64,000 nt of DNA, from NCBI GenBank assembly GCA_964251675.1, contig CAXUKS010000011.1, forward strand, positions 15,177 through 79,176, written 5' to 3'. Position 1 is the first letter of the stretch. Each line of letters starts with the position of its first letter. Below are positions 1,654-62,814 of the stretch, piece by piece. A program made the translations under genes and the position numbers. Origin of the DNA: an uncultured Armatimonadales bacterium. Its GTDB lineage: Bacteria > Armatimonadota > Armatimonadia > Armatimonadales > Capsulimonadaceae. The notes below the pieces were generated by a model. It did no database searches. It had not been told where the DNA came from and saw nothing but the letters and a program-made list of their open reading frames with translations.

Positions 1654-1787
1654 CCCCCGGATTGAGATCCGGGGCTATCAAGTGCGATTGTCCGCCTGCG
1701 CGGACATAAGACTGGATATCGTTAAGCGGTTCCTATGTCCACGAAGGTGGACATTCACAACAGCCAGCCCCGGATTTCAATCCGGGG
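1654..1787. repeat. miniature inverted-repeat element, family D (CCCCGGATTGARATCCGGGG terminal hairpins)
   Basis: Left arm ccccggattgagatccggggct...tgtccgcctgcgcggaca. Right arm tgtccacgaaggtggaca...ccccggatttcaatccggggg is its inverted counterpart. A single arm recurs at 19276..19329. Confidence 0.8.
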
Positions 1788-1799
1788 GCAAGTGTCATT

Positions 1800-3116
1800 A
1801 TGCCTCTTAAATACCCACGCCCTAAAGGAACGCACGACCTCTACCCCGGCGCTGCCGCCTGGGAAGACGACAGCCACAAACGCCAGACGCTGGAAGACCG
1901 CTTCCGCGCTCTGTGCCGCCTGTACGGCTACGGCGAAATTCGCACCCCGGTCTTTGAGGCCACCGAGCTGATCACGCGCTCGGTAGGCGAAGAAACCGAC
2001 ATCGTCTCCAAAGAGATGTATACGTTTGAGACCAAAGGCGGCGACTCGCTCACTCTGCGCCCGGAAAGCACCGCGCCGGTCCTGCGGGCCTATGTCCAGA
2101 ACTCTCTCCACGCCCAGGGCGGCGTTGCCAAGCTCTTTTACTGCGCCTCGCACTTTCGCTACGAGCGTCCCCAGAAAGGCCGCTTCCGGCAGCATGAGCA
2201 GTTCGGCGTCGAAGCTCTCGGCACGGACGACCCGGCGCTGGATGCCGAAGTGATCGAGCTGGCCCTGGCCTTCTTCCGCGCTATCGGCATCCGCAATCTG
2301 ACCCTGAAGCTCAACTCGGTCGGCTCCCCGGAGTCCCGCGCCGAGTATTTGGTGGCCCTGAAAGCCTATGTCCTGCCGTTCCTGCCCGAGTTCAGCCCCG
2401 AAGGGCAGGCTAGATACGAGACCAACCCCCTGCGCCTGCTGGATACCAAAAATCCCCGCGAGAACGAGATTCTGGCCGACGCGCCCCTGCTTTCGGACTA
2501 CCTCACCGAAGACGAGCGCACGCACCACGCCACGCTGCTGGGCTATCTGACCGACGCCGGTGTGCCCTTTGTGCAGGACCCGTTTCTCGTGCGTGGCTTC
2601 GATTACTACACCAAAACGGCGTTTGAAATCCAGTCGCCCGATCTCGGCGCCCAGAACGCACTCGGCGGCGGCGGGCGCTACAATCAGCTCGTGGAGCAGA
2701 TCGGCGGCCCGCCCACGCCTGGCATCGGCTTTGGGCTGGGCGTCGAGCGGGCACTGATTGCCTTGCAGGCGTTAAACGTCGATATGCCGCCGCCACCTGC
2801 GCCGACCGCGCAGGTGATCACGCTGGGCGACGCTGCCCGTCCGGCAGGCGTCAAGCTGCTAGCGCAGCTCCGAGCGGCGGGGATCGCCGCCGAGACTGAG
2901 TACGGGGCCAAGTCCATGAAGTCGCAGATGCGGGCGGCAGGCCGCTCCGGCGCGGGCTACGCGATCATCATCGGCGAGGACGAGATCGCGTCCGGCGTGG
3001 TGCAGCTTAAAAGCCTGCGTGATGGCTGGCAGCATAAGGTCCCGCTGGCCGAGGTGGTGGAATGGATGGACGGCGACACGACCCGCCTGCCACCCTCGTC
3101 GGTTCCCCAATCGTGA
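1800..3116 (+). CDS. hisS: histidine--tRNA ligase
   Basis: 438 aa. HisRS class II motifs RPESTAPV, FRYERPQKGRFRQHEQFGVE, GGGRYNQL, plus a C-terminal anticodon-binding domain. Confidence 0.93.
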   Translation: MPLKYPRPKGTHDLYPGAAAWEDDSHKRQTLEDRFRALCRLYGYGEIRTPVFEATELITRSVGEETDIVSKEMYTFETKGGDSLTLRPESTAPVLRAYVQNSLHAQGGVAKLFYCASHFRYERPQKGRFRQHEQFGVEALGTDDPALDAEVIELALAFFRAIGIRNLTLKLNSVGSPESRAEYLVALKAYVLPFLPEFSPEGQARYETNPLRLLDTKNPRENEILADAPLLSDYLTEDERTHHATLLGYLTDAGVPFVQDPFLVRGFDYYTKTAFEIQSPDLGAQNALGGGGRYNQLVEQIGGPPTPGIGFGLGVERALIALQALNVDMPPPPAPTAQVITLGDAARPAGVKLLAQLRAAGIAAETEYGAKSMKSQMRAAGRSGAGYAIIIGEDEIASGVVQLKSLRDGWQHKVPLAEVVEWMDGDTTRLPPSSVPQS

Positions 3117-3622
3117 CGGCGGCGTCCGTGCTGACACTCGCCGCCCGCGCCCTGCACGCCATCGCCCTCGGCCTCTGGCTCGGCGGCCTGATTGCCATTG
3201 GCGCACTGGTTGCCCCGACAGCGTTCCACCTGACCCGCTCCCTGCCTGCATTCGCCGGGGACACGGCCCTGCAGAACGCCGTCGCGGGCGGCGTGGTCGG
3301 CGGCAGCCTCAAGCTGTTCGTCGTGCTGTGCGATGTCTGCGGCGTGCTGCTCCTCTTGACCGGGGCGTTGCTCCTGAAAAGCGCCCCGCGCCGCCCGGCG
3401 CTGGCCTGCCTATCTGTGTCCGCGCTGCTGTTGCTGTCCTCACTGTATCTGGGCCTGTCGCTGACACCCGCGCTAGACGCCGCGCAGGCCCGGAACGACT
3501 TTGCGACTTTTGACGGCCTGCATCATCAGTACGAGCAGATTTCATCGTTTGTGCAGATGCCTCTGCTCCTGCTGCTGGCCGTGCTGGCGGCGTGGCGGGA
3601 TACACCGAGGCCACGGGGCTGA
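3113..3622 (+). CDS. integral membrane protein (DUF4149/TMEM205-like, 4 predicted TM helices)
   Basis: ORF 3062..3622. The GTG at 3113 overlaps the hisS stop (GTGA) and is the preferred start. Translation is hydrophobic with LWLGGLIAIGALVAP. The stop TGA lies in the loop of the first hairpin of repeat A1. Confidence 0.6.
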   Translation: MTAASVLTLAARALHAIALGLWLGGLIAIGALVAPTAFHLTRSLPAFAGDTALQNAVAGGVVGGSLKLFVVLCDVCGVLLLLTGALLLKSAPRRPALACLSVSALLLLSSLYLGLSLTPALDAAQARNDFATFDGLHHQYEQISSFVQMPLLLLLAVLAAWRDTPRPRG

Positions 3623-3744
3623 ACCCCCGTGCTTTATAAGGGCAAGCCCCCGCCTGCGCGGGCGAGGAAATTTAAGAACGTCCTATGCCCGCGCAGGCGG
3701 GGAATTGCACTTCAAAGCACGGGGGTTCAGCCCCGTGTGCCCTC
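3607..3744. repeat. miniature inverted-repeat element, family A copy 1 (CACGGGGCTGAACCCCCGTG terminal hairpins)
   Basis: About 50-bp terminal inverted repeats. Each arm has hairpin 1 (cacgggg/ccccgtg) and hairpin 2 (gcccgcgcaggcgggg). Full copies also at 17978, 37803 and 47739. Confidence 0.85.
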
Positions 3745-3749
3745 AAATT

Positions 3750-4520
3750 ATGACCATCACCGAAGATACACCTGTTGACCTGCCGACACCCTCCGGGCCG
3801 ATGCGGACCTGTATCCTCCGCCCTGCCGCCGAAGGCCGCTATCCGGGGCTGGTGCTGTTCTCAGAAATCTATCAGCTCACTGCCCCGGTGCGCCGTCTGG
3901 CCGCGCTGTTTGCCGGGGCAGGCTACATCGTCGCCGTCCCCGAAGTCTATCACGAGCTGGAGCCTGCCGGGACCGTGCTGGCCTATGATGCGCCCGGCAC
4001 AGACCGGGGCAATACGGACAAAACGGGAAAGTCCGTGGCCACCTACGATGCCGATGCGCGGGCGGTGCTGGACTTTCTCAAGACTCACCCCCACGGGACG
4101 GGGAAACTGGGCACGGTCGGAATGTGCCTCGGCGGACATCTAGCCTTTCGGGCGGCGATGCACCCTGACGTGCAGGCGGGCGTTTGCTTCTATGCCACCG
4201 ACATTCACTCGCGCACGCTTGGCCTCGGCAAGTCCGACAACTCGCTGGACCGGGTGGGGGAGATCAGCGGTGAGCTGCTGATGGTGTTCGGGCGGCAGGA
4301 CCCGCACGTTCCCCGCGAAGGCCGCCGCGTCATCTACGACGCGCTGGCCGAGGCGGACGTTTCCTTTGAGTGGCACGAGTTCAACGCCGCCCATGCGTTC
4401 CTGCGCGACGAGGGCCAACGCTACGACCCGGCGCTTGCCCGCCTCTGCCTGTCGCTGGCTTTTGACCTGCTGGCCCGCCGCCTCGGGGTTGACAGCGAGG
4501 CCGCCCGTATGCTACACTGA
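3750..4520 (+). CDS. dienelactone hydrolase family protein
   Basis: The ATG at 3750 follows the repeat; the upstream part of ORF 3501..4520 only translates repeat DNA. DLH-type nucleophile motif GMCLGGHLA and an alpha/beta-hydrolase layout. Confidence 0.8.
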   Translation: MTITEDTPVDLPTPSGPMRTCILRPAAEGRYPGLVLFSEIYQLTAPVRRLAALFAGAGYIVAVPEVYHELEPAGTVLAYDAPGTDRGNTDKTGKSVATYDADARAVLDFLKTHPHGTGKLGTVGMCLGGHLAFRAAMHPDVQAGVCFYATDIHSRTLGLGKSDNSLDRVGEISGELLMVFGRQDPHVPREGRRVIYDALAEADVSFEWHEFNAAHAFLRDEGQRYDPALARLCLSLAFDLLARRLGVDSEAARMLH

Positions 4521-4580
4521 CCGGTCATTATCCCAGTTTGAAACAAAACGCAGCGCAAACAATCAGGAGCAGATAATTTT

Positions 4581-4832
4581 ATGGCAAGAGTATGTGACAT
4601 CACCGGGCGCAAAGCCCAGGCAGGCCGCTGGACCCGCCACCCGCACTCCGGCTCGTGGGCACACCGCGCCCCGCAAAAGGCCCGCCGCTTCCAGGTCAAC
4701 CTGCAGACCGTGACCGTGCAGACGCCTAAAGGCAAAAAGAAAATCAAAGTCGCCGCCCGGATGTTGACCTCCAAAAACTTCATGGCGATGGTCGCCGGAC
4801 AGAAGCAGCTCCCCGCCCACCTGCTGAAGTAA
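4581..4832 (+). CDS. rpmB: 50S ribosomal protein L28
   Basis: 83 aa. MARVCDITGRKAQAGR..H....R.F.NLQ pattern typical of bL28. SD-like caggag upstream. Confidence 0.85.
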   Translation: MARVCDITGRKAQAGRWTRHPHSGSWAHRAPQKARRFQVNLQTVTVQTPKGKKKIKVAARMLTSKNFMAMVAGQKQLPAHLLK

Positions 4833-4854
4833 GCCTCGCAAAGACACAAACTAA

Positions 4855-4886
4855 GGGCGCGGAAGATAACTCTTCCGCGCCCTTTT
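4855..4886 (+). terminator. rho-independent terminator after rpmB
   Basis: gggcgcggaag-ataact-cttccgcgccc followed by tttt. Confidence 0.7.
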
Positions 4887-4888
4887 GC

Positions 4889-5048
4889 GTGCCGGGGGTG
4901 TAAAAAGCCCCGACAGGGAAGCACCCTTCGGGTGAGGAGCAGATTTGTAGGGGCAGGGCTTGCCCCTGCCCTTCTTTGGCTTCTCTTTGTCCTAATTATC
5001 TTTGTCCGAAGGACACTTCTTTGCCGGGGGTTTTTACACCCCCGGCAC
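4889..5048. repeat. miniature inverted-repeat element, family C copy 1 (GTGCCGGGGGTnTAAAAACCCCCGGCA terminal hairpins)
   Basis: Inverted arms gtgccgggggtgtaaaaagccccgac...cacccttcgggtg and gtccgaaggacac...gccgggggtttttacacccccggcac. Internal hairpin tgtaggggcagggcttgcccctgccc. Same architecture at 20985..21119. Confidence 0.85.
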
Positions 5049-5065
5049 GCAAAAAGGGCGCGGCC

Positions 5066-6343
5066 CTATCCCTTCGTCCGCGCCCCGCCCGAAGAACGCT
5101 TGCGCCAGTCGTCGGGCAGAAGCTGTTCCAGCGTGTCGTCAATCGTGATAATGCCCTGCAAGGCATCTTTGTCGTCCACCACCGGCAGGGCCAGCAGCTT
5201 GTACCGCTCAAACTTGTGCGCGACTTCCTCCACATTGGCATCTAGGCGCACACTGCGGACTTTCGGAATCATAAACTCCGCCACAGGCCGGTCCGGGGCA
5301 GACACTATTAAATCGCGCAGGGAAATGACGCCCACCAGCTTTTCGTCGGTGTCAATCACATACACGTAGTAAATCGTCTCGGCTTCAGGTTCCAACGCAC
5401 GGAGATGATCTATCGTTTGCTGCGCTGTGAAGCCCTCCACAATAGCGACGTACTCGTTGGTCATCAGGCCGCCCGCCGTTTTGTCGTGGTACTCCAGCAG
5501 CTCTTCCACGTCTTCGCGGTCGTCGGCATCCATACGCCCCAGTAAATCCTGACGGGAAGCGCGGTCCATATCCCCAAGAACGTCGGCGGCCTCGTCGGCG
5601 GGCATCTCTTCCAGAATGTCGGCGGCAAACTCGCCGTCCAGGTGCCGCAGCGTTTCCACCTGCACCTGGTCATCCGCTTCCGCCAGCGCATCGGCGGCGG
5701 TCTCTACATCCATCGATTCCAGCACTTCTTTGCGGTGCGCCAGATCCATTTGATTAAGAATATCGCCAATGTCCGCCGGGTGCAGCTTGGCAATCTTTTC
5801 GTGCGAGACTTTCAGCTTTAGCGGCTCGCCCGCGTTGTGGGTCGGCAGGGACTCGACATCGTTCCACGCAATCAGCGTGTCCGGCGGGGAGCCAATATGA
5901 AACAGCCGCCCGATGCCGTGGACCAGCCCTTCCATCCCCAGCCGCCGCAGCAGCCCGCGCACGCCGGGGTCTACGCCGATCAGCGCCAGACCCCCATTGG
6001 GCAGCTTTTCCAGACGAATATCGTTGACTCGCACGACGCGGTAGTCATGGACATCCACAATCTGCTTGTCTAGCACGTCCCGCACGAGCGAAAAGTCCTG
6101 GGCCTGAATTTGATAGGGTCGAATTTCGGGGATAGGGCGGTTGAGGCTGAACTCGCGGGCGTCAGGGTTGAGTGTCAGCGCCTCATAGGGCACAAACAGC
6201 GCCCCGTCTTCGGTTTTGACTTGGTAAGCCGCCACCAGCGGCAGCGGCTCGGCGGGGGTGATGACCACTTCCACCAATTTTCCGAACCGCTCGCCGTCGC
6301 TGTCGTCCACGGTCTTGCCAATAAGCTGTGTGAGATATTCCAT
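5066..6343 (-). CDS. soluble PRC-barrel / MgtE-N / CBS-pair domain protein (no membrane domain)
   Basis: The start at ATG 6343 (MEYLTQLIGK) avoids repeat F1. MgtE intracellular N-domain acidic repeats (MDVETAADALAEADD, EEMPADEAADVLGDMD) are followed by two CBS motifs. No hydrophobic C-terminal transporter domain. Confidence 0.75.
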   Translation of the reverse strand: MEYLTQLIGKTVDDSDGERFGKLVEVVITPAEPLPLVAAYQVKTEDGALFVPYEALTLNPDAREFSLNRPIPEIRPYQIQAQDFSLVRDVLDKQIVDVHDYRVVRVNDIRLEKLPNGGLALIGVDPGVRGLLRRLGMEGLVHGIGRLFHIGSPPDTLIAWNDVESLPTHNAGEPLKLKVSHEKIAKLHPADIGDILNQMDLAHRKEVLESMDVETAADALAEADDQVQVETLRHLDGEFAADILEEMPADEAADVLGDMDRASRQDLLGRMDADDREDVEELLEYHDKTAGGLMTNEYVAIVEGFTAQQTIDHLRALEPEAETIYYVYVIDTDEKLVGVISLRDLIVSAPDRPVAEFMIPKVRSVRLDANVEEVAHKFERYKLLALPVVDDKDALQGIITIDDTLEQLLPDDWRKRSSGGARTKG

Positions 6344-6377
6344 GCGTGTGGCGGCATTATACCTGAAATGGCAGAAA

Positions 6378-6500
6378 ACCCCTCCCGCTCGTTCCTCGCT
6401 CCCTCCCCTGCTAGGGGAGGGCAAAGAGAAGGGCCAGAGAAGATCAGCCCTGTGCCTACTGGCGGTTTAATTCTAACCCTCCCCTAGCAGGGGAGGGGTC
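6378..6500. repeat. inverted-repeat element, family F (CCCTCCCCTGCTAGGGGAGGG hairpins)
   Basis: Hairpin ccctcccctgctaggggaggg at about 6402 and its inverted copy ccctcccctagcaggggaggg at about 6477. The left flank cccctcccgctcgttcctcgct recurs inverted inside the CDS at 22734..22800. Confidence 0.75.
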
Positions 6501-6971
6501 ATACCGCACCGCCACCGCAAGATCGGCGGGCGGCAGGCATTGACGGTCGCTGCAAAACTGATAATGCAGCGTCACCGGCGCGGCCTTGCCCGCCGTCAGG
6601 GCCTGTGTCAGCGTGAAGCGCCGCGTAAATGTTGCTGTCTTCTCGTGATAGGCCACAAGCGTGCCGAACGTCTTATCCATTTTCCTGACCGGCCTGTCCT
6701 CGGTCGTCGCCCCCGTCGGCGTGCCGCCCGGCCACGAAGCAATCCCCGTGGGCACCGGGCCGACGCCGGAAGGAACCGCCGAGTAGAGATGCCAGCGGGG
6801 GTCTATCCTCGCCCGCACCGTGACTGTCACAATTTTGCCCGCCGATGCCGTGCGCGGGCTAATCGTTGCCGTAAACTTGGCCGGAAGCGGCGGAATAGCA
6901 GTGGCCGCTGTCGTCAGCAGAAGCAGGCCGGAGGCGGCGAGAATATGAGCCGTGCGGTGTTGAGTGAGCAT
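6456..6971 (-). CDS. secreted DsbD-N/DsbC-like (thiol:disulfide interchange alpha-domain) protein
   Basis: Signal peptide, WHLYS motif and C-terminal YQFCSDRQCLPP typical of the DsbD N-terminal domain family. The last ~14 codons are encoded by repeat F1. Confidence 0.65.
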   Translation of the reverse strand: MLTQHRTAHILAASGLLLLTTAATAIPPLPAKFTATISPRTASAGKIVTVTVRARIDPRWHLYSAVPSGVGPVPTGIASWPGGTPTGATTEDRPVRKMDKTFGTLVAYHEKTATFTRRFTLTQALTAGKAAPVTLHYQFCSDRQCLPPADLAVAVRYDPSPARGGLELNRQ

Positions 6972-7043
6972 ATTTTTCTTAACCCGCGACTGCTTGTAAT
7001 TAGTTCCATAAAAGATGCGTAGCCTGCTCCTGTCTTATTCTTC

Positions 7044-7104
7044 ACCCGCGCAGGCGGGTTCCAGGCGTCCGCGCCCCCCAGCGAGGGGGTTCAGCCCCTC
7101 GAAA
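7044..7104. repeat. degenerate hairpin-repeat arm (A/B hybrid)
   Basis: acccgcgcaggcgggt followed by cgagggggttcagcccctcg. Same two-hairpin layout as family A, with CGAGGGG in place of CACGGGG. Confidence 0.55.
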
Positions 7105-7225
7105 GATGGCCGCGAAAGTATGATGAAGCATTTATGCAGCTAAGCCACACCATGTTGCCGCGTTTGAAACAATCCGCCTGCGGCGGCGTACTACCCTTCA
7201 GAAGACACGGCGCAGGAGGTGTGAC

Positions 7226-7750
7226 ATGACCATAGGAGATGTTCTGGCGGCGGTGGCCGCTCTGCTGACACTAGGAGCCTCCTGGGGAGCGGCAATTTTG
7301 CTGGCCGCGCTGGCATTTCCAGCGCGGGCGGCGCGGGCGCAAACGCGGCTGACCGAGCACCCCTGGGCCTGCCTGGGCCGGGGCGTGGTGGTGCTGACAG
7401 TCTGCGGCCTGCCCGCGCTGCTGCTGGCGCAGGCGCCGGGGCCGGTCCGCCTGCTGCTTTTGTTTCCGCTGGGCCTGCTGGCAGCGGGGGCGGTGGTCGG
7501 CAGCGCGGCGGCGGTTCGCCTGCTGGCGGGGCGCATTGAGACCGTCGGCTCACCGCTGGCTCCGTTTGCCGCCCTGACCCGTGCCACGTTTCTGTTCGTG
7601 TCTGCGGGCTTTCTGCCGGTATTTGGCTGGTTTCTGGTCCTGCCCGCCGCGCTGCTGCTGGCCCTGGGGGCGGGCCTGCCCGCGCTGCTGCCGGCCCGCA
7701 CCCACGCGCCTGCGTTCGCGGAAACCCTGCTGGCGGAGGCTGCGCCATGA
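7226..7750 (+). CDS. polytopic membrane protein P1 (paralog of 11594..12148)
   Basis: AGGAGG 8 nt upstream. 174 aa, about 4 TM. Stop overlaps the next start (ATGA). Shares ...GR(I/L)....F.AL.R....L and P.FGW.LVL segments with the product of 11594..12148. Confidence 0.65.
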   Translation: MTIGDVLAAVAALLTLGASWGAAILLAALAFPARAARAQTRLTEHPWACLGRGVVVLTVCGLPALLLAQAPGPVRLLLLFPLGLLAAGAVVGSAAAVRLLAGRIETVGSPLAPFAALTRATFLFVSAGFLPVFGWFLVLPAALLLALGAGLPALLPARTHAPAFAETLLAEAAP

Positions 7751-9207
7751 ACACAACGCGACGGCAATTTCTGTGCGCGGGAGCCGCCCTCAGTGCGGGG
7801 CTGCTGACGGGCTGCCAGAGTTTGCAGCAGCGGCTGACCCGGCAAAGCCTGCCGCCGGATGCCCTGCCGCCCCGAACCGTCGCCAGTCTGCCCGCCGTGC
7901 GGCTGCTGAACCGGGCTGCTTATGGCCCGCGTCCCGGTGACATCGCTCTGGTGACGAAGCTGGGCATTCCCGCCTGGGTGGACGCCCAGCTTCAGCCGGA
8001 GACGCTGGCCGAGGACGCCGGGCTGCGGTGGCGTCTGCGGAGCCTGAGCGACTCCCTGAACCCGGACACGGGAACGCTGTTTGACGAAGACGACCAGCGG
8101 CTAATCGGGACGCTTCGGCAGGCGACGCTGCTCCGAGCGGTCTACAGCCGCCGCCAGCTTCAGGAGCGCATGGTGGAGTTCTGGACCGACCACTTTAATA
8201 TCTATGCGTTCAAAGGGCAGGGGCCTCAGCTTAAAGTCGCAGACGACGCACTGACTATCCGCTCCCACGCCCTGGGCCGCTTCCGGGACCTGCTGGGGGC
8301 CTCCGCGCATTCCGCCGCCATGCTGGGCTATCTGGACAACACGGCGAACCGGCGCGGCCTGCCCAACGAAAACTATGCGCGGGAGCTGATGGAGCTGCAC
8401 ACGCTGGGGGTTCACGGCGGGTACACGCAGCAGGATGTCCACGAAGCCGCCCGCTGCCTGTCCGGCTGGACGTATGACACGCACTGGCATCGGGGCCGGT
8501 TCCGCTTTGATGCCAGTGTGCATGACGACGGCGCAAAGCACGTTCTGGGCGTCACCTTCCCGGCAGGCGGCGGCCAAAAAGACGGCGAGCGGCTGCTGGA
8601 CCTGCTGGCGGCGCACCCGGCCACCGCCCGCCATCTGGCCGCGAAGCTTTGCCGCCACTTTCTGGGCGACGCCCCGCAGCCCTGGGTCAGCCGTCTGGCG
8701 GCGATTTATACTCAGAGTGGAGGCGACATCAAAGCCATGCTGCGGCCACTTCTCTTGTCCGAGGACTTACTTCACGCGGCCCCGCTGTTCAAGCGCCCCT
8801 ATGACTACGCCGTCAGCGCCCTGCGTTCCCTCGGCGCGGATACGGACGGTGGCGCGGGCGTGCAGGAGCATCTGGAAGCCATGGGGCAGCCGTCCTTTGG
8901 CTGGCCGATGCCGGATGGCTACCCCGAAAATCAGCAGTCGTGGACCGGGGCGATGGTTCCGCGCTGGAACTTTGCCCTGGCGCTGGCGGGCGGGGCGATT
9001 GAGAACACCGCGCTCGACACACCCGCGCTGTGCGAGGCGGCCCGGCATGCGGGCCTCAGCCCGCACGACGCCGTGCTGCATCTCGCGTTCGGTCCCTCGG
9101 CGGCAGAAGCGGGCGTGACGGACCTGCGCGGGCGGGCGTTGGAATACCCGGATGTGAGCGAGTTTGCTGCTCTGGTCCTGGCCTCGCCCGCATTCGCGTG
9201 GCGATAG
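7747..9207 (+). CDS. DUF1800 domain-containing protein (Tat-signal lipoprotein-like N-terminus)
   Basis: 486 aa. RRQFLCAGAALSAGLLTGC N-terminus. DUF1800-typical WTDHFNIY and RELMELHTLGVHGGYTQQDV segments. Confidence 0.85.
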   Translation: MNTTRRQFLCAGAALSAGLLTGCQSLQQRLTRQSLPPDALPPRTVASLPAVRLLNRAAYGPRPGDIALVTKLGIPAWVDAQLQPETLAEDAGLRWRLRSLSDSLNPDTGTLFDEDDQRLIGTLRQATLLRAVYSRRQLQERMVEFWTDHFNIYAFKGQGPQLKVADDALTIRSHALGRFRDLLGASAHSAAMLGYLDNTANRRGLPNENYARELMELHTLGVHGGYTQQDVHEAARCLSGWTYDTHWHRGRFRFDASVHDDGAKHVLGVTFPAGGGQKDGERLLDLLAAHPATARHLAAKLCRHFLGDAPQPWVSRLAAIYTQSGGDIKAMLRPLLLSEDLLHAAPLFKRPYDYAVSALRSLGADTDGGAGVQEHLEAMGQPSFGWPMPDGYPENQQSWTGAMVPRWNFALALAGGAIENTALDTPALCEAARHAGLSPHDAVLHLAFGPSAAEAGVTDLRGRALEYPDVSEFAALVLASPAFAWR

Positions 9208-9218
9208 GAGAGCTTTCT

Positions 9219-10469
9219 ATGAAAACAACAAGGCGCGGACTGTTTGCGCTCGGCGCACTCTCGGCTCTGGGCTGGGCCAGCGGCGCACGCGGGGCGCTGA
9301 GCGGGGTCAGCCTGACGCCCCATCGGGCCGGGCCGCCGGGAGACACTCTCATTTTCATTTTCCTGCGCGGCGGCGTCGACGGCCTGAGCGTGGTCGTACC
9401 GCATGGGGATGACGATTATTACCGTGCCCGGCCCACGCTGGCACTGGCCCGGCCCGGCGACCGGCAGGGCAAACCGGCGGAGCGGGTGCTGGATTTGGAC
9501 GGCTATTTCGGCCTGCACCCGGCCCTCGCGCCGCTGTGGCCGCTGCACGAGGCGGGGCATCTCGCCGTGGTTCATGCCTGCGGGTCGGGGGACACGACGC
9601 ACTCGCACTTTGAAGCAATGGCGACTGTAGAGCGCGGGGTGTCGCAGGGCGACGGCCCGGCCTCGGGCTGGCTGGCGCGGCATCTGGAGACCGCGCCCTG
9701 GGACAATCCCTCTCCCCTGCGGGCGGTGGCCCTGGGAAGCCTGCTGCCGCAGTCCCTGCGCGGGGAAAGTCGCGCCACGGCCCTGCAAACCACCGCTGAC
9801 CTGCGCCTGCGGTCGCCGTTTGCGGGCGGCACGGATAAGTTCACACGGTCACTTGCGGAGCTGTACGGGCGCGGCGCACTGGCTGAGGCGGGCGGAGAAG
9901 CCCTGTCGGTCCTGAAAACTCTCAGTGCCCTGCCGCCGCTCGGCACGCACAGCGCGTACCCGCCCAACGATCTCGGCGTGGGGCTGCGCCAGACGGCGCG
10001 GCTGATGAAAAGCGGCGTAGGGCTGGAAGCGGTCTGCCTTGACCATAACGGGTATGATACCCATGTTCTTCAGGGCGGAGCGCAGGGGGTGCTGGCCGGG
10101 CTGCTGGCAAGCCTTGCCTCCGGGCTGGCCGCCTTTGCCGCCGACCTCGGCCCGGCCCGGTGGGCGCGGACTACGGTGGTGGTGCTGTCGGAATTCGGGC
10201 GGCGCGTGCCGGAAAATAGTGGCCTCGGAACCGACCACGGCAGCGGCGGCGTCCTGCTTCTGCTGGGCGGGCGTGTCGCGGGCGGGCGGGTCCACGGACA
10301 CTGGCCCGGCTTGGCCGCCAGCAGTTTGGCCGGGCCGGGCGATCTCAAAGTAACAACCGACTACCGGGCCGTGCTGGCCGAAGTGATCACGCGGCGGCTG
10401 GGCAATCCGCACATGTCTGAGATTTTTCCGGGGCTGACGCAGCCCGCGCTGGGAGTGGTTCATGGCTGA
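9219..10469 (+). CDS. DUF1501 domain-containing protein (sulfatase/alkaline-phosphatase-like, Tat signal)
   Basis: Start at ATG 9219 (MKTTRRGLFALGALS) with ggag upstream. YDTH...SEFGRR..EN...GTDHG segments typical of DUF1501. Canonical partner of DUF1800. Confidence 0.85.
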   Translation: MKTTRRGLFALGALSALGWASGARGALSGVSLTPHRAGPPGDTLIFIFLRGGVDGLSVVVPHGDDDYYRARPTLALARPGDRQGKPAERVLDLDGYFGLHPALAPLWPLHEAGHLAVVHACGSGDTTHSHFEAMATVERGVSQGDGPASGWLARHLETAPWDNPSPLRAVALGSLLPQSLRGESRATALQTTADLRLRSPFAGGTDKFTRSLAELYGRGALAEAGGEALSVLKTLSALPPLGTHSAYPPNDLGVGLRQTARLMKSGVGLEAVCLDHNGYDTHVLQGGAQGVLAGLLASLASGLAAFAADLGPARWARTTVVVLSEFGRRVPENSGLGTDHGSGGVLLLLGGRVAGGRVHGHWPGLAASSLAGPGDLKVTTDYRAVLAEVITRRLGNPHMSEIFPGLTQPALGVVHG

Positions 10470-10530
10470 TCTGGCAGCAATTTCATACGGCCTGCGCCGG
10501 ACGGCATCGGCGTGGGGAGGAGCAGCGGCC

Positions 10531-11088
10531 ATGCAGACCAGCGATGAGGCGCTGGCCGAGTGCGTGCGGGCCACCGGCGACACCGCCGCGTTCAGCGTTC
10601 TGGTGACCCGCTACCGCGCCCGTGTGACGGCCCTCGCCCGCCGGATGCTGACTGCTTCGGGCGCCGAGGAAGCGGAAGACGTGGCCCAGGAAACCTTCGT
10701 GGCCGCGTTTGCAGGCCGGGCGGGCTTCCGGCGCGGCGAGCCGTTCCGGCCCTGGCTGTACCGGATTGCCGTCAATCGCTGCCTGGACCGGCTCCGTGCC
10801 CAGACCCGGCGGCCTCTTTCGCTGGACATCCGCGCCGTGCCCGAGCCTGCTTCCTCAGAAGCGGACCCGCTCACTGCTTTGCTGACCGGCGAAGGCCAGC
10901 GTCGCCTGTCGGACGCTGTGGCCGCATTGCCGCCGCGAATGCGGGCGGTGTTCGTGCTGCGCTTTTTGGATGACCTGTCTTATACCGAAATCGCGTCTGC
11001 CACCGGCCTGCCGCTGGGAACCGTGAAAACGCATCTGTCCCGCGCCCGCGCCCTCCTGCGGGCCGCGCTTGCGGACGAGGAAGAGTGA
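10531..11088 (+). CDS. ECF-type RNA polymerase sigma-70 family factor
   Basis: Region 2 (FSVLVTRYRARV...AEDVAQETFV) and region 4 HTH (LSYTEIASATGLPLGTVKTHLSRAR). The ATG at 10531 has GGGGAGGAG upstream. An alternative ATG at 10462 overlaps the DUF1501 stop. Confidence 0.85.
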   Translation: MQTSDEALAECVRATGDTAAFSVLVTRYRARVTALARRMLTASGAEEAEDVAQETFVAAFAGRAGFRRGEPFRPWLYRIAVNRCLDRLRAQTRRPLSLDIRAVPEPASSEADPLTALLTGEGQRRLSDAVAALPPRMRAVFVLRFLDDLSYTEIASATGLPLGTVKTHLSRARALLRAALADEEE

Positions 11089-11639
11089 TGCCCCATCCCC
11101 TGAACTGCTCCGTCGCCCGCGCCTGCATGGATCGAGCTTCGGACGACGGCTTGTCGGCCCCCGATCAGGCACGCCTCGAAGCGCATCTGGCGTTGTGCGA
11201 ACTGTGCCGCCAGGAGTGGGCCACGCAGGTCCGGCTTGATCGGGCCGCCCGGCGCTGGGCCGCGCCTGCCTCCGAAGATGACCCCGGCGCGGCGTTCAAC
11301 GCGCAGGTGCTGGCCCGGATTGCGGCCCTCCCGGCGGCGCGTCCCCCGCTCTGGCTGCCGCTGGCAGTGGCCCTCGCACTGGGGCTTTTGCTGACGTTCC
11401 TGCCTGCAGCAGCGCGGCCCGATCTGGGCTGGCTGACGGCCTCCGCCCGACTCCTGCCAGGCTGGCTGGCAGCGAACCTGTCCGGGCTGCCCGGCGACGC
11501 TGTCGGGCTGCTGACGGCAGGCAGCGGTCACGCGCTTCCCGCCGTCTGGATCTGGGGCATATTAACCGCCGCTGCGCTGACAAACGGCCTGTTTTGCGTG
11601 CGTGCGGCCCGGTCTCAGGCACGGAGGGCACTGCCATAA
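11088..11639 (+). CDS. anti-sigma factor (zf-HC2 type, one TM)
   Basis: Start overlaps the sigma stop (TGATG). N-terminal C..C...H...C..C pattern (HLALCELCRQEW) followed by a membrane segment. Confidence 0.7.
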   Translation: MPHPLNCSVARACMDRASDDGLSAPDQARLEAHLALCELCRQEWATQVRLDRAARRWAAPASEDDPGAAFNAQVLARIAALPAARPPLWLPLAVALALGLLLTFLPAAARPDLGWLTASARLLPGWLAANLSGLPGDAVGLLTAGSGHALPAVWIWGILTAAALTNGLFCVRAARSQARRALP

Positions 11640-12148
11640 CCCAGAACGACCCTGGACGGCTCTTTCTCATTGGCCCCTTGCTGGTGCTGTTTCTGATTGC
11701 CTGTCTGGCGGCGCTGGCCCTGCTGGCCGCGCTGCTGGGGCGCGTCCCGGCGGGCCTGCACGGCGGCGAGCGTGCCGCTGCCCGTTTGGAGCGCGGGGGA
11801 GCGGCCCTGCCGCTCTGGGGGCTGGCCGCCGCGCTGTTCGGGCTGGCGCTGGCCGCCGTGCTGGTCAACATCCACCCGATTGCCCTGCTCGGAATGCTGG
11901 TGTTTGCGGCAATGCTGTGTCTGGGCGCTCTGGGGCTGGGGGTGGCCGCGCAGTCGCTGGGCGGCAGGCTGGGCAATGCGGCGGAAGAGCCAGAGGCGTT
12001 CACGGCTTTGCGGCGCGGCCTGTGGGTGCTGCTCCTGAGCGCCGCCGTTCCCTTTGCCGGCTGGCTGCTTGTCCTGCTGGCTCTGGCGGCAGGCATCGGC
12101 GCGGTGCTGGACACCCTGATCACGCGCAGGCAAGAACCCAACTTGTAG
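11594..12148 (+). CDS. polytopic membrane protein P2 (paralog of 7226..7750); start uncertain
   Basis: 184-aa ORF from TTG 11594, overlapping the anti-sigma gene. Four hydrophobic segments, colinear with P1. Confidence 0.55.
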   Translation: MRACGPVSGTEGTAITQNDPGRLFLIGPLLVLFLIACLAALALLAALLGRVPAGLHGGERAAARLERGGAALPLWGLAAALFGLALAAVLVNIHPIALLGMLVFAAMLCLGALGLGVAAQSLGGRLGNAAEEPEAFTALRRGLWVLLLSAAVPFAGWLLVLLALAAGIGAVLDTLITRRQEPNL

Positions 12149-12230
12149 GGGCGCTGCTTGCTGCGCCCTCTTATCTCTTCCGTATTTATCTGGCTCCCCC
12201 AGAATTGGGGGCGGGGGGCGATCCGGGGCT
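12145..12230. repeat. mosaic of short hairpin modules X (taggggcgctgcttgctgcgccc) and Z (ctcccccagaattgggggcgggggg)
   Basis: Module X recurs at 24046. Module Z recurs at 18134 and 23085. Confidence 0.7.
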
Positions 12231-13034: not shown

Positions 13035-13060
13035 GGGCGAGCGGCTGCTTCCTTATTTCC

Positions 13061-13106
13061 TTCGTCCGAAGGACGCCTTCTCTAGCGAGGGATTTTCAAT
13101 CCCTCG
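13061..13106. repeat. single arm of family B repeat
   Basis: ttcgtccgaaggacgccttctctagcgagggattttcaatccctcg. Same arm as at 39391..39436 and 62771..62814. Confidence 0.75.
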
Positions 13107-13123
13107 GAACTCGCCGGCTTTTA

Positions 13124-13132: not shown

Positions 13133-13141
13133 TTAAACAGG

Positions 13142-14302: not shown

Positions 14303-14323
14303 CCGTAAGCATCTCCTGAACTT

Positions 14324-15903: not shown

Positions 15904-15920
15904 CCATCAGAACGGCTGTG

Positions 15921-16053
15921 CGAGAGGTTAAAACCCCTCGCTATGAGGCGCTTCGCGCCGGGCGGCCATTCGGACAACACACGCAGCCTCCCGCATCCTA
16001 GTCTTATGGCTTCCCGGCGTCTGCGCCTTCCAGCGAGGGGTTTTAACCCCTCG
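15921..16053. repeat. miniature inverted-repeat element, family B variant
   Basis: cgagaggttaaaacccctcgctatgaggcgcttcgcgccggg, and inverted ccggcgtctgcgccttccagcgaggggttttaacccctcg. The right arm is flanked by 16-bp direct repeats. Confidence 0.75.
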
Positions 16054-16084
16054 TCCTTATGGCTTCCTGGCCTTTGAAACAATT

Positions 16085-17977: not shown

Positions 17978-18127
17978 GGGCACACGGGGCTGAACCCCCA
18001 TGCTTTGAAGAGCAATTCCCCGCCTTCGCGGGCATAAGATATAGGAAAAGCCTCCGCTCTGAAGTCTTCGCCCGCGAAGGCGGGGGCTTGCACTTTTAAA
18101 GCACGGGGGTTCAGCCCCGTGTGCCCT
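17978..18127. repeat. miniature inverted-repeat element, family A copy 2
   Basis: gggcacacggggctgaaccccca...gcccgcgaaggcgggggcttgcacttttaaagcacgggggttcagccccgtgtgccc. Flanked by an F-like hairpin (about 17925..17975) and module Z (18134..18165). Confidence 0.85.
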
Positions 18128-19240: not shown

Positions 19241-19275
19241 TATGTCAAGTAAACTCGGAAAATCCTGTCTGCTCT

Positions 19276-19329
19276 TATGTCCACGAAGGTGGACAATCGC
19301 CCTTTTTAGCCCCAGATTTCAATCTGGGG
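19276..19329. repeat. single arm of family D repeat
   Basis: tatgtccacgaaggtggaca...ccccagatttcaatctgggg matches the right arm of 1654..1787. Confidence 0.75.
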
Positions 19330-19367
19330 ACTGCATAACATTAACTGTTTGGGTGGTAATATGGCCT

Positions 19368-20889: not shown

Positions 20890-20984
20890 CAGTCTCATAC
20901 CCTCTCCTTTAAAGCAGCACCACATCAAGGCGACGCCTGGGTTTATGGTACACCTTGACGTTGCTGCATAATGGACGGGCCAAA

Positions 20985-21119
20985 TGCCGGGGGTATGAAA
21001 ACCCCCGGCAGGGAAGCACCCTTCGGGTGAGGATGTAGGGGTAGGGCTTGCCCCTACCCATCTTTCCTGTCTTTGTCCGAAGGACATTTCCTTGCCGGGG
21101 GTTTCTACACCCCCGGCAC
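20985..21119. repeat. miniature inverted-repeat element, family C copy 2
   Basis: Colinear with 4889..5048, including the internal hairpin tgtaggggtagggcttgcccctaccc and the gtccgaaggaca hairpin. Confidence 0.85.
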
Positions 21120-21297
21120 TCTGATTATGGGACTTATCCAACAACGCCGTACACCTTCGTTGCGTGCTTGCCTGCCGCTCATCCGCCCTTCCCAAAACCG
21201 CCCAATCGTGGTACACTCTGTCTTCTCCGGCCCGTCTTCTTGCTGAAGCAGAGGCCAGCGCGAGTCTGCCTTTCTCCCATCACACAGGAGGCTTTCA

Positions 21298-23025: not shown

Positions 23026-23176
23026 TTAATCCTTTAGGAAGGACCCTGCGAAGCAAAGAATGAGCCAAGCAAAGAGGCAGGTCTCCGGCTCCCCCAGTAT
23101 TGGGGGCGGGGGGGGTGCTCTTCTGCCCGCGAAGGCGGGGAATTGCTCTTCTAAAGCACGGGGGTTCAGCCCCGTG
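23026..23176. repeat. composite of modules Y and Z plus a single family A arm
   Basis: ttaatcctttaggaaggaccctgcgaag..., then ccggctcccccagtattgggggcggggggg, then gcccgcgaaggcggggaattgctcttctaaagcacgggggttcagccccgtg. Confidence 0.75.
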
Positions 23177-23204
23177 ACAACCTTTCGGGTACACTGACAC
23201 CATC

Positions 23205-25203: not shown

Positions 25204-25357
25204 ACCGATCTTGTTGGCGTTGCTGCATAAATCCCATAGTCGTGGTTCAGAGTGCCGGGGGTATAAAATATCTTGAAACCCCCGGCATTAAGCTCAGCCG
25301 CCCTCCGGGCGGCACTCGGCACAAGAGCCTTTATGCAACAACACCGATCTTGTTTAC
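25204..25357. repeat. composite inverted-repeat element (outer IR ccgatcttgtt..gttgctgcataaa, inner family C hairpin)
   Basis: Outer arms at 25205..25231 and 25330..25354 are inverted copies. Inner gtgccgggggtataaaatatcttgaaacccccggca and gccgccctccgggcggc hairpins. The gttgctgcataa module also precedes C2 at about 20960. Confidence 0.7.
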
Positions 25358-29634: not shown

Positions 29635-29735
29635 AGTTTGTCCCTTGCTTCTCCGCTAACAGTGTTTTACACTGACCTGTTAGAAGCCACGGGTTGAAAC
29701 CCGAGGCTTCTGAAATGCTCCGCATAAAAAGTCCG

Positions 29736-39290: not shown

Positions 39291-39296
39291 CAAGTT

Positions 39297-39436
39297 TGCC
39301 GGGGGTATAAAACCCCCGGCAGGAAGTTCAGTCGCCCTCCGGGCGGAAGAATAAGACGAAGAGACTGCCAATGGCCGCAGGCTCTTCTCTTTCGTCCGCA
39401 GGACGCCTCTCCTAGCGAGGGGTTTTCAACCCCTCG
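39297..39436. repeat. composite: family C arm plus family B arm
   Basis: tgccgggggtataaaacccccggcagg..gtcgccctccgggcgg ... ttcgtccgcaggacgcctctcctagcgaggggttttcaacccctcg. Lies between permease and ATPase genes. Confidence 0.8.
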
Positions 39437-39458
39437 CGCTTTGCCCTGCGTTTTAACT

Positions 39459-45792: not shown

Positions 45793-45941
45793 AGCCACGG
45801 TTTGCAGAGCCACGGATTAAAATCCGTGGCTGAAGGGCGCAGACGCCGAACGTCCCTGCGGGACGGCAATGCCAGCAAAAATTAACTATCTTATCTTTTG
45901 TCCCGCAGGGACATTCAGCCGCAGGCTCCTCAGCCATGCAT
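45793..45941. repeat. miniature inverted-repeat element, family E (AGCCACGGATTAAAATCCGTGGCT hairpin; GTCCCTGCGGGAC hairpin)
   Basis: Left arm agccacggattaaaatccgtggctgaagggcgcagacgccgaacgtccctgcgggacgg. Inverted right arm tgtcccgcagggacattcagccgcaggctcctcagccatgcatttcaatgcgtggct. Confidence 0.75.
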
Positions 45942-47720: not shown

Positions 47721-47738
47721 AGATAAGCCACATAGGAA

Positions 47739-47869
47739 CACGGGGCTGAACCCCCGTGCTTTGAAGTGCAATTCCCCGCCTTCGCGGGCATAAGAGCAGA
47801 CTGCTCTCAAATTCTTCGCCCGCGAAGGCGGGGGCTTGCCCTTTTAAAGCACGGGGGTTCAGCCCCGTG
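47739..47869. repeat. miniature inverted-repeat element, family A copy 4
   Basis: cacggggctgaacccccgtgctttgaagtgcaattccccgccttcgcgggc ... gcccgcgaaggcgggggcttgcccttttaaagcacgggggttcagccccgtg. Confidence 0.88.
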
Positions 47870-47901
47870 ACTTCCCGTATTTTTCCAGGAGAACCTAACC
47901 T

Positions 47902-61666: not shown

Positions 61667-61698
61667 GCAATGGTCAACGTGCTTTGTTGTCGTCACCA

Positions 61699-61728
61699 TT
61701 GACAGAACAGGTGTGATTGTGACATAAT
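61699..61728 (+). promoter_or_regulatory. candidate sigma-70-type promoter of the nuo operon
   Basis: TTGACA (61699..61704), an 18-nt spacer, then TGaCATAAT (61720..61728). About 50 nt upstream of nuoA. Confidence 0.5.
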
Positions 61729-61778
61729 TCACAAGAAGGGCGGCCCGAGCCGCCGAGTGATTTTAGAAGGGGACCGCC

Positions 61779-62207
61779 ATGCTGCCAATTGCGCCCGCGC
61801 CCACACCACAAATCTCGGATTACCTCCCGCTGCTGATTATTTTGATTGTCGCTATCGGCCTGGCGTCGGTGCTGGTCGGCCTGTCCTGGATACTTGGCCC
61901 CAAAAAGCCATCGGCGGCGAAGCTAGCCCCCTACGAATGCGGCGTCAGCCCCGTCGGCTCGGCGCGGGAGCGGTTTCCGGTCAAGTTTTATTTGATTGCG
62001 ATGCTGTTTATCGTATTTGACATTGAAACTGTCTTTTTGTATCCCTGGGCGGTGACATTCACGCAATGGGTGAAGCAGCCAGCCCTGACATACGTGCAGG
62101 GACATCAGATGCAGCTTTTTAGCCTCGGCGAGATGATTACGTTTATTGTCATCCTGTTTGTGGGTTATATTTACGTTTGGAAAAAAGGGGCCTTCGAATG
62201 GGAGTAG
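61779..62207 (+). CDS. nuoA: NADH-quinone oxidoreductase subunit A
   Basis: [25 protein letters not shown]. About 15 extra residues before TM3. Confidence 0.9.
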
Positions 62208-62671
62208 AGCAAAACTTAGGTGTTCTGACCGTGCCGCTGAACAAAGTCGTCAACTGGGCACGCCGCAACTCGGTCTGGCCCGCGACCTTTGGCCTGGCCT
62301 GCTGCGCCATTGAAATGATGGGCAGCACCAACTCGCGCAACGACCTGGCCCGGTTCGGCTCGGAAGCGTTCCGCGCCTCGCCCCGGCAGGCGGACCTGAT
62401 GATTGTGGCGGGCCGCGTCTCCAAAAAGATGGCCCCGGTCCTGCGGCAGATTTACGATCAGATGCCCGAGCCGAAGTGGGTCATCTCGATGGGCGACTGC
62501 GCCTCCTGCGGCGGCGTGTTCAACAACTACGCGATTTTGCAGGGCGTAGACCAGATCGTGCCTGTGGACATTTATGTTCCCGGCTGCCCGCCGAACCCGG
62601 ACGCGCTGATTTATGCGATCAATCAGTTGCAGAAGAAAATCGACCGCGAGCATTTCAGCGACACACGGTAG
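62198..62671 (+). CDS. nuoB: NADH-quinone oxidoreductase subunit B
   Basis: Start at ATG 62198. [24 protein letters not shown] cluster N2 ligands. Confidence 0.93.
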
Positions 62672-62687
62672 AGTAGATTAACAAGAT

Positions 62688-62814
62688 CGAGGGGTTAAAA
62701 ACCCCTCGCTAGGAGGGGCGTCCTGCGGACGACAGAGAAGGACCATCCGCTGCAGGCTTCCAACTTCTTCCGTCCGAAGGACGCCTAACCTAGCGAGTAG
62801 TTTTCAACTACTCG
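62688..62814. repeat. miniature inverted-repeat element, family B (CGAGGGGTTAAAAACCCCTCG terminal hairpins)
   Basis: cgaggggttaaaaacccctcgctaggaggggcgtcctgcggacg ... cgtccgaaggacgcctaacctagcgagtagttttcaactactcg. Sits between nuoB and nuoC. Confidence 0.85.

Follow-up and report, generated by a model that had tools for sequence, protein, structure and literature searches.

Intergenic DNA in a 64,000-nucleotide stretch from an uncultured Armatimonadales bacterium (contig CAXUKS010000011.1; the whole stretch is hereafter called the window) contains many short repeats built of "arms", that is, of consecutive hairpins. An earlier note on this DNA had sorted the arms into at least five families (A to E) and had proposed that a single two-hairpin design underlies their dissimilar sequences. 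What are these arms, and how can several families of one design coexist in a genome? The study of the window and of related contigs indicates that they are probably end modules of non-autonomous mobile repeats similar to REPtrons and to REPINs (doublets of repetitive extragenic palindromes, or REPs, that form hairpins), handled by IS200-like transposases of the Y1 type.

Architecture of the arms

The window holds about 28 arms of two or three hairpins in 17 intergenic loci (Table 1). The five arm sequences quoted in the earlier note, one for each family, were all recovered where it had placed them and, once four further repeat families (F, G, H and I) are included, the number of repeat-bearing loci comes near the 20 that it had counted. 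Read inwards, an arm begins with an outer hairpin of 7-11 bp whose A/T-rich loop is conserved (YTGAAM or TTAAAA); a linker then leads to a short inner hairpin of the form (G)YCCRC-CTKC-GYGGR(C), and some arms have a third hairpin. A descriptor of this arrangement (a perfect stem of 7 bp or more whose loop is AT-rich and, 4-25 nt further on, a stem of 5 bp or more that closes a loop of 3-5 nt) recognizes 24 sites in the window versus 1.8 ± 1.3 (maximum 6) in 40 first-order Markov simulations. The folds of the arms as single-stranded DNA (ssDNA) agree with this result: hairpins 1 and 2 form in each arm, with z-scores between -2.5 and -5.5 in nine out of ten arms and of -1.1 in the remaining one. 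The shared design is thus upheld, but the claim that an arm always has two hairpins holds for most arms only, as the E arm and the arm at 7035-7104 fold into three. When whole pairs are folded, A and D each give a single long hairpin (z = -13.9 and -8.9, respectively). In the B pair (z = -7.0), both outer hairpins stay local because the hairpin 1 stems differ, and they surround a paired core. The GT[AG]G foot is absent from the A to E arms, in which the inner flank of hairpin 1 is CTTTA, CTAG or CTAA.

Y1 transposase genes beside the arms

The window was said to lack any mobilizing gene, and this was confirmed: there are 0 Pfam transposase or integrase domains among its approximately 60 predicted proteins, and tblastn with approximate sequences of the IS608 and ISDra2 transposases (TnpA) found no Y1 transposase in it. 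The search for an IS200- or RAYT-like enzyme (RAYT: REP-associated tyrosine transposase) that had been recommended did provide an explanation when extended to related contigs and metagenomic loci outside the window (designated by L numbers). A search with the exact 18-mer of A hairpin 1 yielded 120 metagenomic loci, which come for the most part from rock metagenomes, and in six loci selected by this arm sequence alone (L085, L101, L111, L122, L126 and L182) tblastn revealed Y1 transposase open reading frames (ORFs) adjoining the arms. When ORFs were clustered across loci in search of recurrent neighbours, the largest cluster also included transposase ORFs. A regular expression for RAYT motifs (HUH plus Y..NP) gave no match because the enzyme has Y---Q and not Y---NP; the group characterized by Y---Q--HH is found in five of the six arm-selected loci. 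In L182 the gene lies between two pairs in mirror symmetry, in L085 and L111 one of its flanks bears a pair and the opposite flank a single arm, and in L126 there is a pair on the sole side preserved by the contig. The sixth gene (L122, 575-1051) encodes a canonical IS200-type TnpA (123 bits with NCBIfam) and directly adjoins an A pair; it may be an ordinary IS200 inserted beside or into the repeat.

A test independent of the arms was carried out by searching with the L111 protein. Six homologues, 43-81% identical to the query, were picked for their long contigs and yielded ten genes in seven loci: L205, L206, L207 (three genes), L208, L209, L211 (two genes) and L212. None of the ten genes lacks an adjoining inner hairpin. 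Six of them have, on both sides, arms that are recognized (18-86 bits) by R1, a covariance model built from A arms only to which all arm scores given here refer; the arms flanking a seventh gene, the K paralogue of L207, were identified by eye only. The usual layout consists of a pair upstream, the gene, and then an arm in reverse orientation downstream. The genes of L205, L206 and L207 (the one at 10001) have an A pair upstream and an A arm or pair downstream, and that of L208 has a D pair upstream and a D arm downstream. The first paralogue of L207 is flanked by three-hairpin arms of an E/B'-like family and the second one by the further family K, so that three arm families flank the three paralogues of this locus. 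In L209 (43% identical, 68% G+C), the gene has on either side an arm whose 11-bp stem is new, with the loops TTGAAA and CTTC and with GCCCGC-CTTC-GCGGGC as hairpin 2; the only two strong R1 matches in 20 kb are precisely these two arms. The repeats that flank the two tandem paralogues of L211 (51% G+C) combine TTTTAA-loop hairpins with GTCCAC-CTWC-GTGGAC and were recognized by eye, with no R1 score, and L212 (71% G+C) has GTCCGC-CTTC-GCGGAC only, upstream of the gene. Arms or their inner hairpins therefore flank every Y---Q--HH gene examined, and the flanks of paralogues are family-specific.

The enzymes diverge together with their flanks. Relative to the A-type reference P0155, the other A-type enzymes are 66-72% identical, the D-type enzymes 51-54%, the paralogue with three-hairpin arms 42%, and both the K paralogue and an enzyme linked to a "second group" of elements (see below) 32%. 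The position of the transposase gene between argF and argG is common to L205, L207 and L208, with A-type arms in two of them and D-type arms in the third, and the transposases encoded at this position in the three genomes are 54-71% identical to one another. The three Y1 paralogues of L207 (4098-4544, 6230-6673 and 10001-10423) are interleaved with argJ, argB, argD, argF, argG and argH.

Short tandem repeats adjoin some of the pairs that flank transposase genes (L182 6880-6935 and 7660-7700; L208 9725-9750 and 9885-9955; L205 9945-9975; L085 3625-3700). Those of L182, L208 and L205 copy half of the hairpin 1 stem and the adjacent bases, and the unit of L085 differs (CTCACAACGCCTACGG). They could be footprints of repeated cleavage and joining.

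Class of the transposases

The Y1 proteins are about 140-150 residues long (range 138-160), and the motifs of the Y---Q--HH group are HFVWxTWxR, DHVHLL, FxWQGxY and YIENQKQHHADGxLW. This group scores 77-95 bits with Y1_Tnp of Pfam (PF01797) and 72-82 bits with the IS200/IS605 model of NCBIfam (NF033573, cutoff 55), and its 21-29 bits with the RAYT equivalog NF047646 fall below the cutoff of 80. The closest solved structures are the IS608 and ISDra2 TnpA; the structure of the E. coli RAYT is not among the PDB matches. Judging by published motifs, length and low copy number, these proteins appear to match subclass 1.2 of Quentin et al., which is defined by Y---Q--HH, WQ and DH[IV]H, has a median length of 148 residues and is low-copy and not IS-like (PMC6006769). 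That subclass was published as having no REPs associated with it and as being found chiefly in Cyanobacteria and Bacteroidetes (PMC6006769), whereas the arms described here flank every gene examined and are dispersed, and their hosts are relatives of Armatimonadota and other uncultured lineages. The "IS200 Group 3" of Bertels et al., which resembles RAYTs and has abundant flanking 16-mers and no duplicates (PMC5581495), may be the same group. No description of such repeats in Armatimonadota was found in the literature consulted.

The affinity with IS200 calls for considering that the genes and their arms may together be ordinary multicopy autonomous insertion sequences of this family, in which case the pairs would be deletion derivatives comparable to palindrome-associated transposable elements. 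The proteins do pass the NCBIfam cutoff and are closest to the IS608 and ISDra2 enzymes, the two types of arm that make up a pair (see below) resemble distinct left and right ends, and the gene lies between a type 1 and a type 2 arm, enclosed as in an insertion sequence. Nevertheless, the gene occupies the same argF-argG position in three genomes in spite of the divergence of its product, paralogues within a genome are only 32-42% identical to the A-type copy, protein clusters are mostly found on one to four contigs, neither near-identical copies of the transposase gene nor a tnpB partner were seen in any locus examined, and the arms far outnumber the genes. We thus regard this scenario as unlikely. 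An apparently low copy number, a conserved position, diverged paralogues and a repeat family for each gene are rather the signature of REPtron or REPIN-RAYT systems (PMC3337134, PMC6006769).

Relationships among the arm families and asymmetry of the pairs

R1 was built from 92 distinct A arms of the window and the metagenomic loci, and the window was searched with filters off. A arms score 73-88 bits, D arms 29-39 bits (E = 1e-6 to 2e-9) and the hybrid arm 7035-7104 34.5 bits; the scores decrease to 4.7-15.6 bits (E = 0.007 to 8) for B arms and 5.5-14.3 bits (E = 0.016 to 5) for C arms, and there is no match to the E arm (45805-45870). Thus, A, D and the hybrid are firmly united, B and C are weakly connected to them and E is missed; one structural model does not fit all families convincingly. 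Nor are the families as unrelated as they had seemed. A and D have in common their linker (CTTTAGAAGTGCRATT), the form of hairpin 2 and their tail (CATAAGAGCAGAC), B' and E share the middle hairpin GGCG-CAGA-CGCC, and the arm at 7035-7104 joins a B-type stem with an A-type loop (CGAGGGG-CTGAAC-CCCCTCG), a middle GGCG-CGGA-CGCC and an A-type hairpin 2 (CCCGCCTGCGCGGG). The arm families are, then, partly homologous. Across all loci, conservation is highest in the inner hairpin and in the two loops, and variation is greatest in the outer stem.

The observation that both halves of a stem change together was also borne out among the 92 A arms, in which hairpin 2 contains compensated pairs: at 39-56, situated across a conserved C-C mismatch, 47 arms have UA and 43 have CG; at 44-51, 87 have GC and 4 have AU; and at 45-50, 90 have CG and 2 have UA. 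Paired cells amount to 99.5%, versus 34-65% if the partner column is slid. This covariation may stem from few independent events and is supportive rather than decisive. The change at 39-56 distinguishes two types of A arm, type 1 (...GCAAGCC-CCCGCC..GCGGGC-GAAGA) and type 2 (...GCAAYTC-CCCGCC..GCGGGC-ATAAGA). The facing pairs found in related loci combine one of each in 37 of 42 cases, against a random expectation of about half, and both orientations are seen; a unit thus lacks symmetry and resembles an element whose left and right ends are distinct. Inverted pairs and singletons do both occur, as had been noted, but the A arm at 37800, supposedly single, is accompanied by a decayed partner (37873-37933).

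The 18-mer of A hairpin 1 also heads a different element of about 150 nt, the "second group" (L098-L101, L110, L135, L141, L144, L148, L155, L156, L159, L162, L165 and L178), made of two arms whose hairpin 1 and hairpin 2 stems are unlike and whose linkers are complementary. L101 has a Y1 transposase, only 32% identical to the A-type enzyme, that is flanked by two of these elements in direct orientation. The hairpin 2 loop of some A arms contains nested insertions of 22-32 nt of two recurring kinds (L175, L170, L102 and L106; L133, L145 and L169); this loop may therefore be a target for other small elements.

Arms inside true MITEs

[quoted passage not shown] The 15-bp TIR is GGCGTTGYTGCATAA, and the 9-bp duplications are perfect in both copies. 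A third copy with the same TIR, in L082 (13874-14109), carries another hairpin family. It could be argued on these grounds that all arms are classical MITEs of a DDE-type insertion sequence, as the elements 20957-21148 and 25216-25345 and that of L082 share the TIRs and enclose hairpin arms. Yet these TIRs and duplications are absent from the A, B and D pairs, from the C arms elsewhere and from the arms adjacent to tnpA, and the TIR occurs only three times in the roughly 0.94 Mb sampled, compared with more than 200 arms, which leaves this explanation very improbable. The arms inside the MITEs appear to be cargo or nested insertions.

Distribution, genomic context, gain and loss

The arms extend well beyond the window, R1 recognizing 207 of them in 100 sources (the window and 99 related loci). 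They differ at orthologous intergenic sites between the window, L082 and L083, the last two of which are about 88% identical. Between the PadR and HhH-GPD genes, the window has a D arm, L083 has no element and L082 has a different paired element of 240 nt; an A arm after the HhH-GPD gene is found in L083 only, and a B-type pair is unique to L082. The B' region 15918..16056 matches L082 11864-12007 at 75%, within a 224-nt stretch absent from L083. These presence/absence differences show no clean target duplication. The A arm at 23116 has an ortholog in L082 with few mismatches, the blastn identity of the flanking genes being 83-84%.

Arms commonly begin 7-15 nt past a stop codon and finish 10-30 nt ahead of the next start codon. 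This position, the better conservation of one single arm than of its flanking genes between the window and L082, and the fact that REPs have been co-opted for host roles in other bacteria (PMC3337134) are compatible with another scenario, in which the arms are elements selected by the host (mRNA 3' stabilizers, terminators or sites for nucleoid or regulatory proteins) and spread by recombination, their proximity to transposase genes being incidental. Nevertheless, pairs are found not only between co-directional (20) or convergent (7) genes but also in divergent promoter regions (4), and their orientation is random with respect to transcription (11 versus 9). Within positions 1-20000, hairpin 1 was not called terminator-like in any A, B or D arm and no T tract follows the stems, the calls in this part including a true terminator (4853-4884) and the H elements; a reading of the arms as intrinsic terminators was discarded on this basis. 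Rfam 15 has no match in the window at gathering thresholds, and a permissive search gave generic long-hairpin or microRNA-like noise far below threshold. The transposase genes selected by protein are all flanked, and by family-specific arms, which chance proximity does not explain. The host-element scenario consequently seems quite unlikely to us.

A proposed REPIN-like system on the IS200 side

The interpretation that we favor, namely non-autonomous repeats handled by IS200-like Y1 transposases, can be outlined as follows. The unit consists of two non-identical inverted arms, type 1 and type 2, resembling left and right ends, so that it is similar to a REPIN or to an insertion sequence of which only the two ends are left; singletons would be solo or decayed units. 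These non-coding units would be moved in trans, as folded ssDNA, by small HUH Y1 transposases that exist as single copies, belong to an IS200-like subclass and carry DHVH, WQ and YIENQKQHH; the own genes of these enzymes are bracketed by the same arms. The enzyme would recognize the folded hairpins, then cut and rejoin the DNA without duplications, by analogy with known systems (PMC6006769, PMC8266576), from which hairpin binding and cleavage, the ssDNA route and the action in trans are all inferred. Paralogous transposases with different arm families would account for the presence, in a single genome, of several families of the same design with compensated stems.

Several points weigh against this interpretation. 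The window itself has no transposase, and the link between arms and genes comes from related contigs; many arm-selected loci derive from few related metagenomes and are therefore not independent. Among the protein-selected loci, L212 shows only an inner hairpin upstream of its gene and the arm-like hairpins of L211 were identified by eye. The A hairpin 1 18-mer also heads the elements that flank the transposase of L101, an enzyme only 32% identical to the A-type one, so stem identity is not uniquely tied to an enzyme clade. No cognate transposase was identified for the B and C families, and E has a look-alike layout only. The C arms inside a MITE with TIRs and duplications imply a second route of spread by a DDE-type enzyme. 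The assignment to subclass 1.2 is based on published motifs and length and not on its authors' profile. Finally, comparison of near-identical contig pairs recovered no clean or precise insertion junction of A to E units, and yielded instead an unrelated 124-nt MITE and a 0.74-kb insertion.

The multi-family architecture, taken in the earlier note for undescribed, already exists in REPIN-RAYT or REPtron systems, where several REP or REPIN families per genome each flank their own Y1 transposase (PMC3337134, PMC6006769). The likeness to these systems (PMC3116915, PMC3337134, PMC6006769, PMC8266576) extends to short palindromic units dispersed across intergenic DNA, inverted doublets that fold into one long hairpin, singlets of which some are decaying, several families per genome that each flank their own low-copy Y1 HUH gene (here in related genomes), the absence of target duplication and a transposase gene that is apparently inherited vertically. 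Their enzyme is, however, a class 2 TnpA(REP) with Y---NP, in contrast to the Y---Q--HH proteins and their scores with the RAYT model; their arms have a 5' GT[AG]G foot and one hairpin, as opposed to no foot and two or three hairpins; and, unlike in these systems, the two arms of a unit are here consistently of different types. IS200/IS605 elements and palindrome-associated transposable elements resemble the present system in their protein family, in their non-identical hairpin-bearing ends and in the lack of target duplication, but the ends described here are inverted copies of one design, no tnpB was seen in the loci examined, the gene is apparently low-copy and has a conserved chromosomal position and diverged paralogues, and non-autonomous units vastly outnumber genes. 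The BIMEs (bacterial interspersed mosaic elements) of E. coli and the SNRs (small non-coding repeats) of Deinococcus radiodurans (PMC1978522, PMC11276467) are similar as modular palindrome mosaics with hybrid or nested copies and several families per genome; there is no sequence relationship and the organism is not Deinococcus, the SNRs being compared by description only. What is new here is the kind of transposase and an arm that lacks the GT[AG]G foot and has two or three hairpins, together with the fixed type 1/type 2 asymmetry.

The window and its inventory of repeats

The DNA of the window is chromosomal, with a G+C content of about 62% and housekeeping genes such as those of AccA, HisRS, ribosomal protein L28, TatD, nadC, an AcrB-type pump, ABC transporters and nuo; no tRNA genes were found in it. 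The nearest named relatives of a window protein belong to Armatimonadota (Capsulimonas, Chthonomonadaceae; about 72-80% identity), and a highly conserved MetH-like protein has its best match, at 65%, in unrelated phyla. The G+C content and the mosaic repeats had suggested an identity with the Deinococcus SNRs, an idea that was dropped because the window proteins are closest to Armatimonadota.

Table 1. Hairpin arms of the window and the MITEs that enclose some of them (R1 scores in bits)
Feature	Position	Arms (strand, type)	R1	Remarks
Hairpin 1, A	3612-3631, 3718-3737, 18102-18121, 23157-23176, 37803-37822, 47739-47758, 47850-47869			Imperfect copy 17983-18002
Hairpin 1, B	62688-62708, 13086-13106, 39415-39437, 62794-62814			
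Hairpin 1, C	5022-5047, 20985-21010, 21093-21118, 39297-39321			
Hairpin 1, D	1655-1674, 1768-1787, 19310-19329			
Hairpin 1, E	45808-45831			
D pair	1652..1790	1652-1714 (+) facing 1728-1790 (-)	39.3, 29.0	Fold z = -8.9; hairpin 1 CCCCGGAT-loop-ATCCGGGG; hairpin 2 GTCCGC/GTCCAC...GCGGAC/GTGGAC
A pair	3609..3740	3609-3672 (+, type 1) facing 3678-3740 (-, type 2)	83.9, 78.9	Fills gap from upstream ORF end (3622) to likely dienelactone hydrolase start near 3753
C pair	4889..5047	4889-4938 (+) facing 4995-5047 (-)	8.4	Centre holds H element, a GTAG-type REP (4947-4973)
Three-hairpin hybrid arm	7035..7104	(-)	34.5	Fold of three hairpins
B single arm	13055..13109	(-)	15.6 (E = 0.007)	Between divergent TatD and SteA-like genes; z = -3.4
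B' arms	15918..16056	15918-15976 (+), 15999-16056 (-)	5.4, 13.2	Inner hairpin types GGCGC-TTC-GCGCC and GGCG-CAGA-CGCC
A pair	17980..18124	17980-18042 (+, type 2) facing 18061-18124 (-, type 1)	72.7, 86.3	Between convergent genes; not downstream of ortholog in L082/L083, where neighbouring gene also differs
D single arm	19270..19332	(-)	38.3	Divergent PadR / HhH-GPD intergenic region
TIR/duplication MITE	20948..21157	C pair 20985-21119	11.7, 5.5	Duplication GTACACCTT (9 bp) at 20948-20956, 21149-21157; TIRs 20957-20971, 21134-21148; MITE 20957-21148 also encloses H element 21035-21059
A single arm	23116..23179	(-, type 2)	85.1	26 nt upstream of quinolinate phosphoribosyltransferase gene
Second MITE copy	25207..25354	One C arm 25252-25319	7.4	Duplication GATCTTGTT at 25207-25215, 25346-25354; TIRs 25216-25230, 25331-25345
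Isolated E-like hairpin 1	29684..29732	(+)	16.1 (E = 0.0055)	AGCCACGGG-TTGAAA-CCCGAGGCT; no clear hairpin 2
A arm and decayed partner		37800-37861 (+, type 1), 37873-37933 (-)	77.9, 17.7	
C arm facing B arm	39296..39439	C 39296-39353 (+), B 39385-39439 (-)	14.3, 13.6	Heterologous pair in gap between FtsX-type permease and ABC ATPase genes
E three-hairpin arm	45805..45912	45805-45870 (+)	No match	-22.2 kcal/mol, z = -5.3; hairpins AGCCACGGAT-TAAA-ATCCGTGGCT, GGCG-CAGA-CGCC, GTCCC-TGC-GGGAC; facing-partner remnant GTCCCGCAGGGAC at 45900-45912
A pair	47736..47872	47736-47798 (+, type 2) facing 47809-47872 (-, type 1)	79.4, 87.6	47733-47876 as ssDNA: one long hairpin, -66.2 kcal/mol, z = -13.9
B pair	62685..62817	62685-62739 (+) facing 62763-62817 (-)	8.6, 4.7	Unlike hairpin 1 stems, CGAGGGG vs CGAGTAG; linkers and hairpin 2 pair in fold (z = -7.0)

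The layout of the E arm is that of the three-hairpin arms that flank the first tnpA paralogue of L207. Close to it, a perfect 13-nt tandem repeat (TTCAATGCGTGGC) is present in five copies (45942-46006) at the very start of ORF 45936-47249, which has no Pfam match.

Other repeats share the intergenic DNA of the arms. The H family, GTAG followed by an 8-10-bp palindrome, is found in the window at 4947-4973, 12145-12170 and 21035-21059 (-), with a variant at 24046-24070; its stems vary (e.g. GTAGGGGCGCGATTYATCGCGCCC and GTAGGGGCAGGGCTTGCCCCTGCCC), copies are numerous in L085-L204, and they are often nested centrally in A or C pairs. Its presence suggests that a classical RAYT system coexists in these genomes; no ORF flanked by GTAG-type REPs was found as a RAYT candidate. 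The F hairpins (CCCTCCCCT-N3-AGGGGAGGG, variant CCCTCTCCTT) are located in the window at 6401-6421, 6477-6497, 22751-22771 and 17928-17951, and the copy at 17928 is retained downstream of the orthologous gene in L083. The G motif (CTGGCTCCCCCAGAATTGGGGGCGGGGGG) occurs at 12189-12218, 18133-18162 and 23084-23113. It is also present in L176 (768-892), within a 124-nt insertion absent from the 98%-identical L149; the inverted repeats of this insertion (AGTGTGTATAAAAAG) and its TTAG duplication point to another MITE family. I is a further repeat family.

Implications

Among bacterial mobile repeats that are long-lived and inherited vertically, REP and REPIN systems are the main known case, and they have so far been tied to class 2 TnpA(REP)/RAYT enzymes and, canonically, to GTAG-footed palindromes. 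It can be proposed, with what we hold to be an even chance of being right, that subclass 1.2 transposases are the mobilizers of their own repeats, GTAG-less, asymmetric and made of two or three hairpins. On the IS200 side of the tree they would thus make up a REPIN-like system that is independent of the first, with several co-diverging pairs of enzyme and repeat per genome, anchored in some lineages in the arginine biosynthesis cluster. If the link between arms and transposases holds, an orphan IS200-like subclass would gain a function, and domestication accompanied by a population of repeats would have arisen, or persisted, on the IS200 side of the family. The paralogous enzymes and their hairpins, with conserved loops and changed stems, would offer natural sets in which to study how HUH enzymes read folded ssDNA. 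The repeats, which appear about once per 2-4 kb, would also be relevant to the annotation and assembly of Armatimonadota-like genomes.

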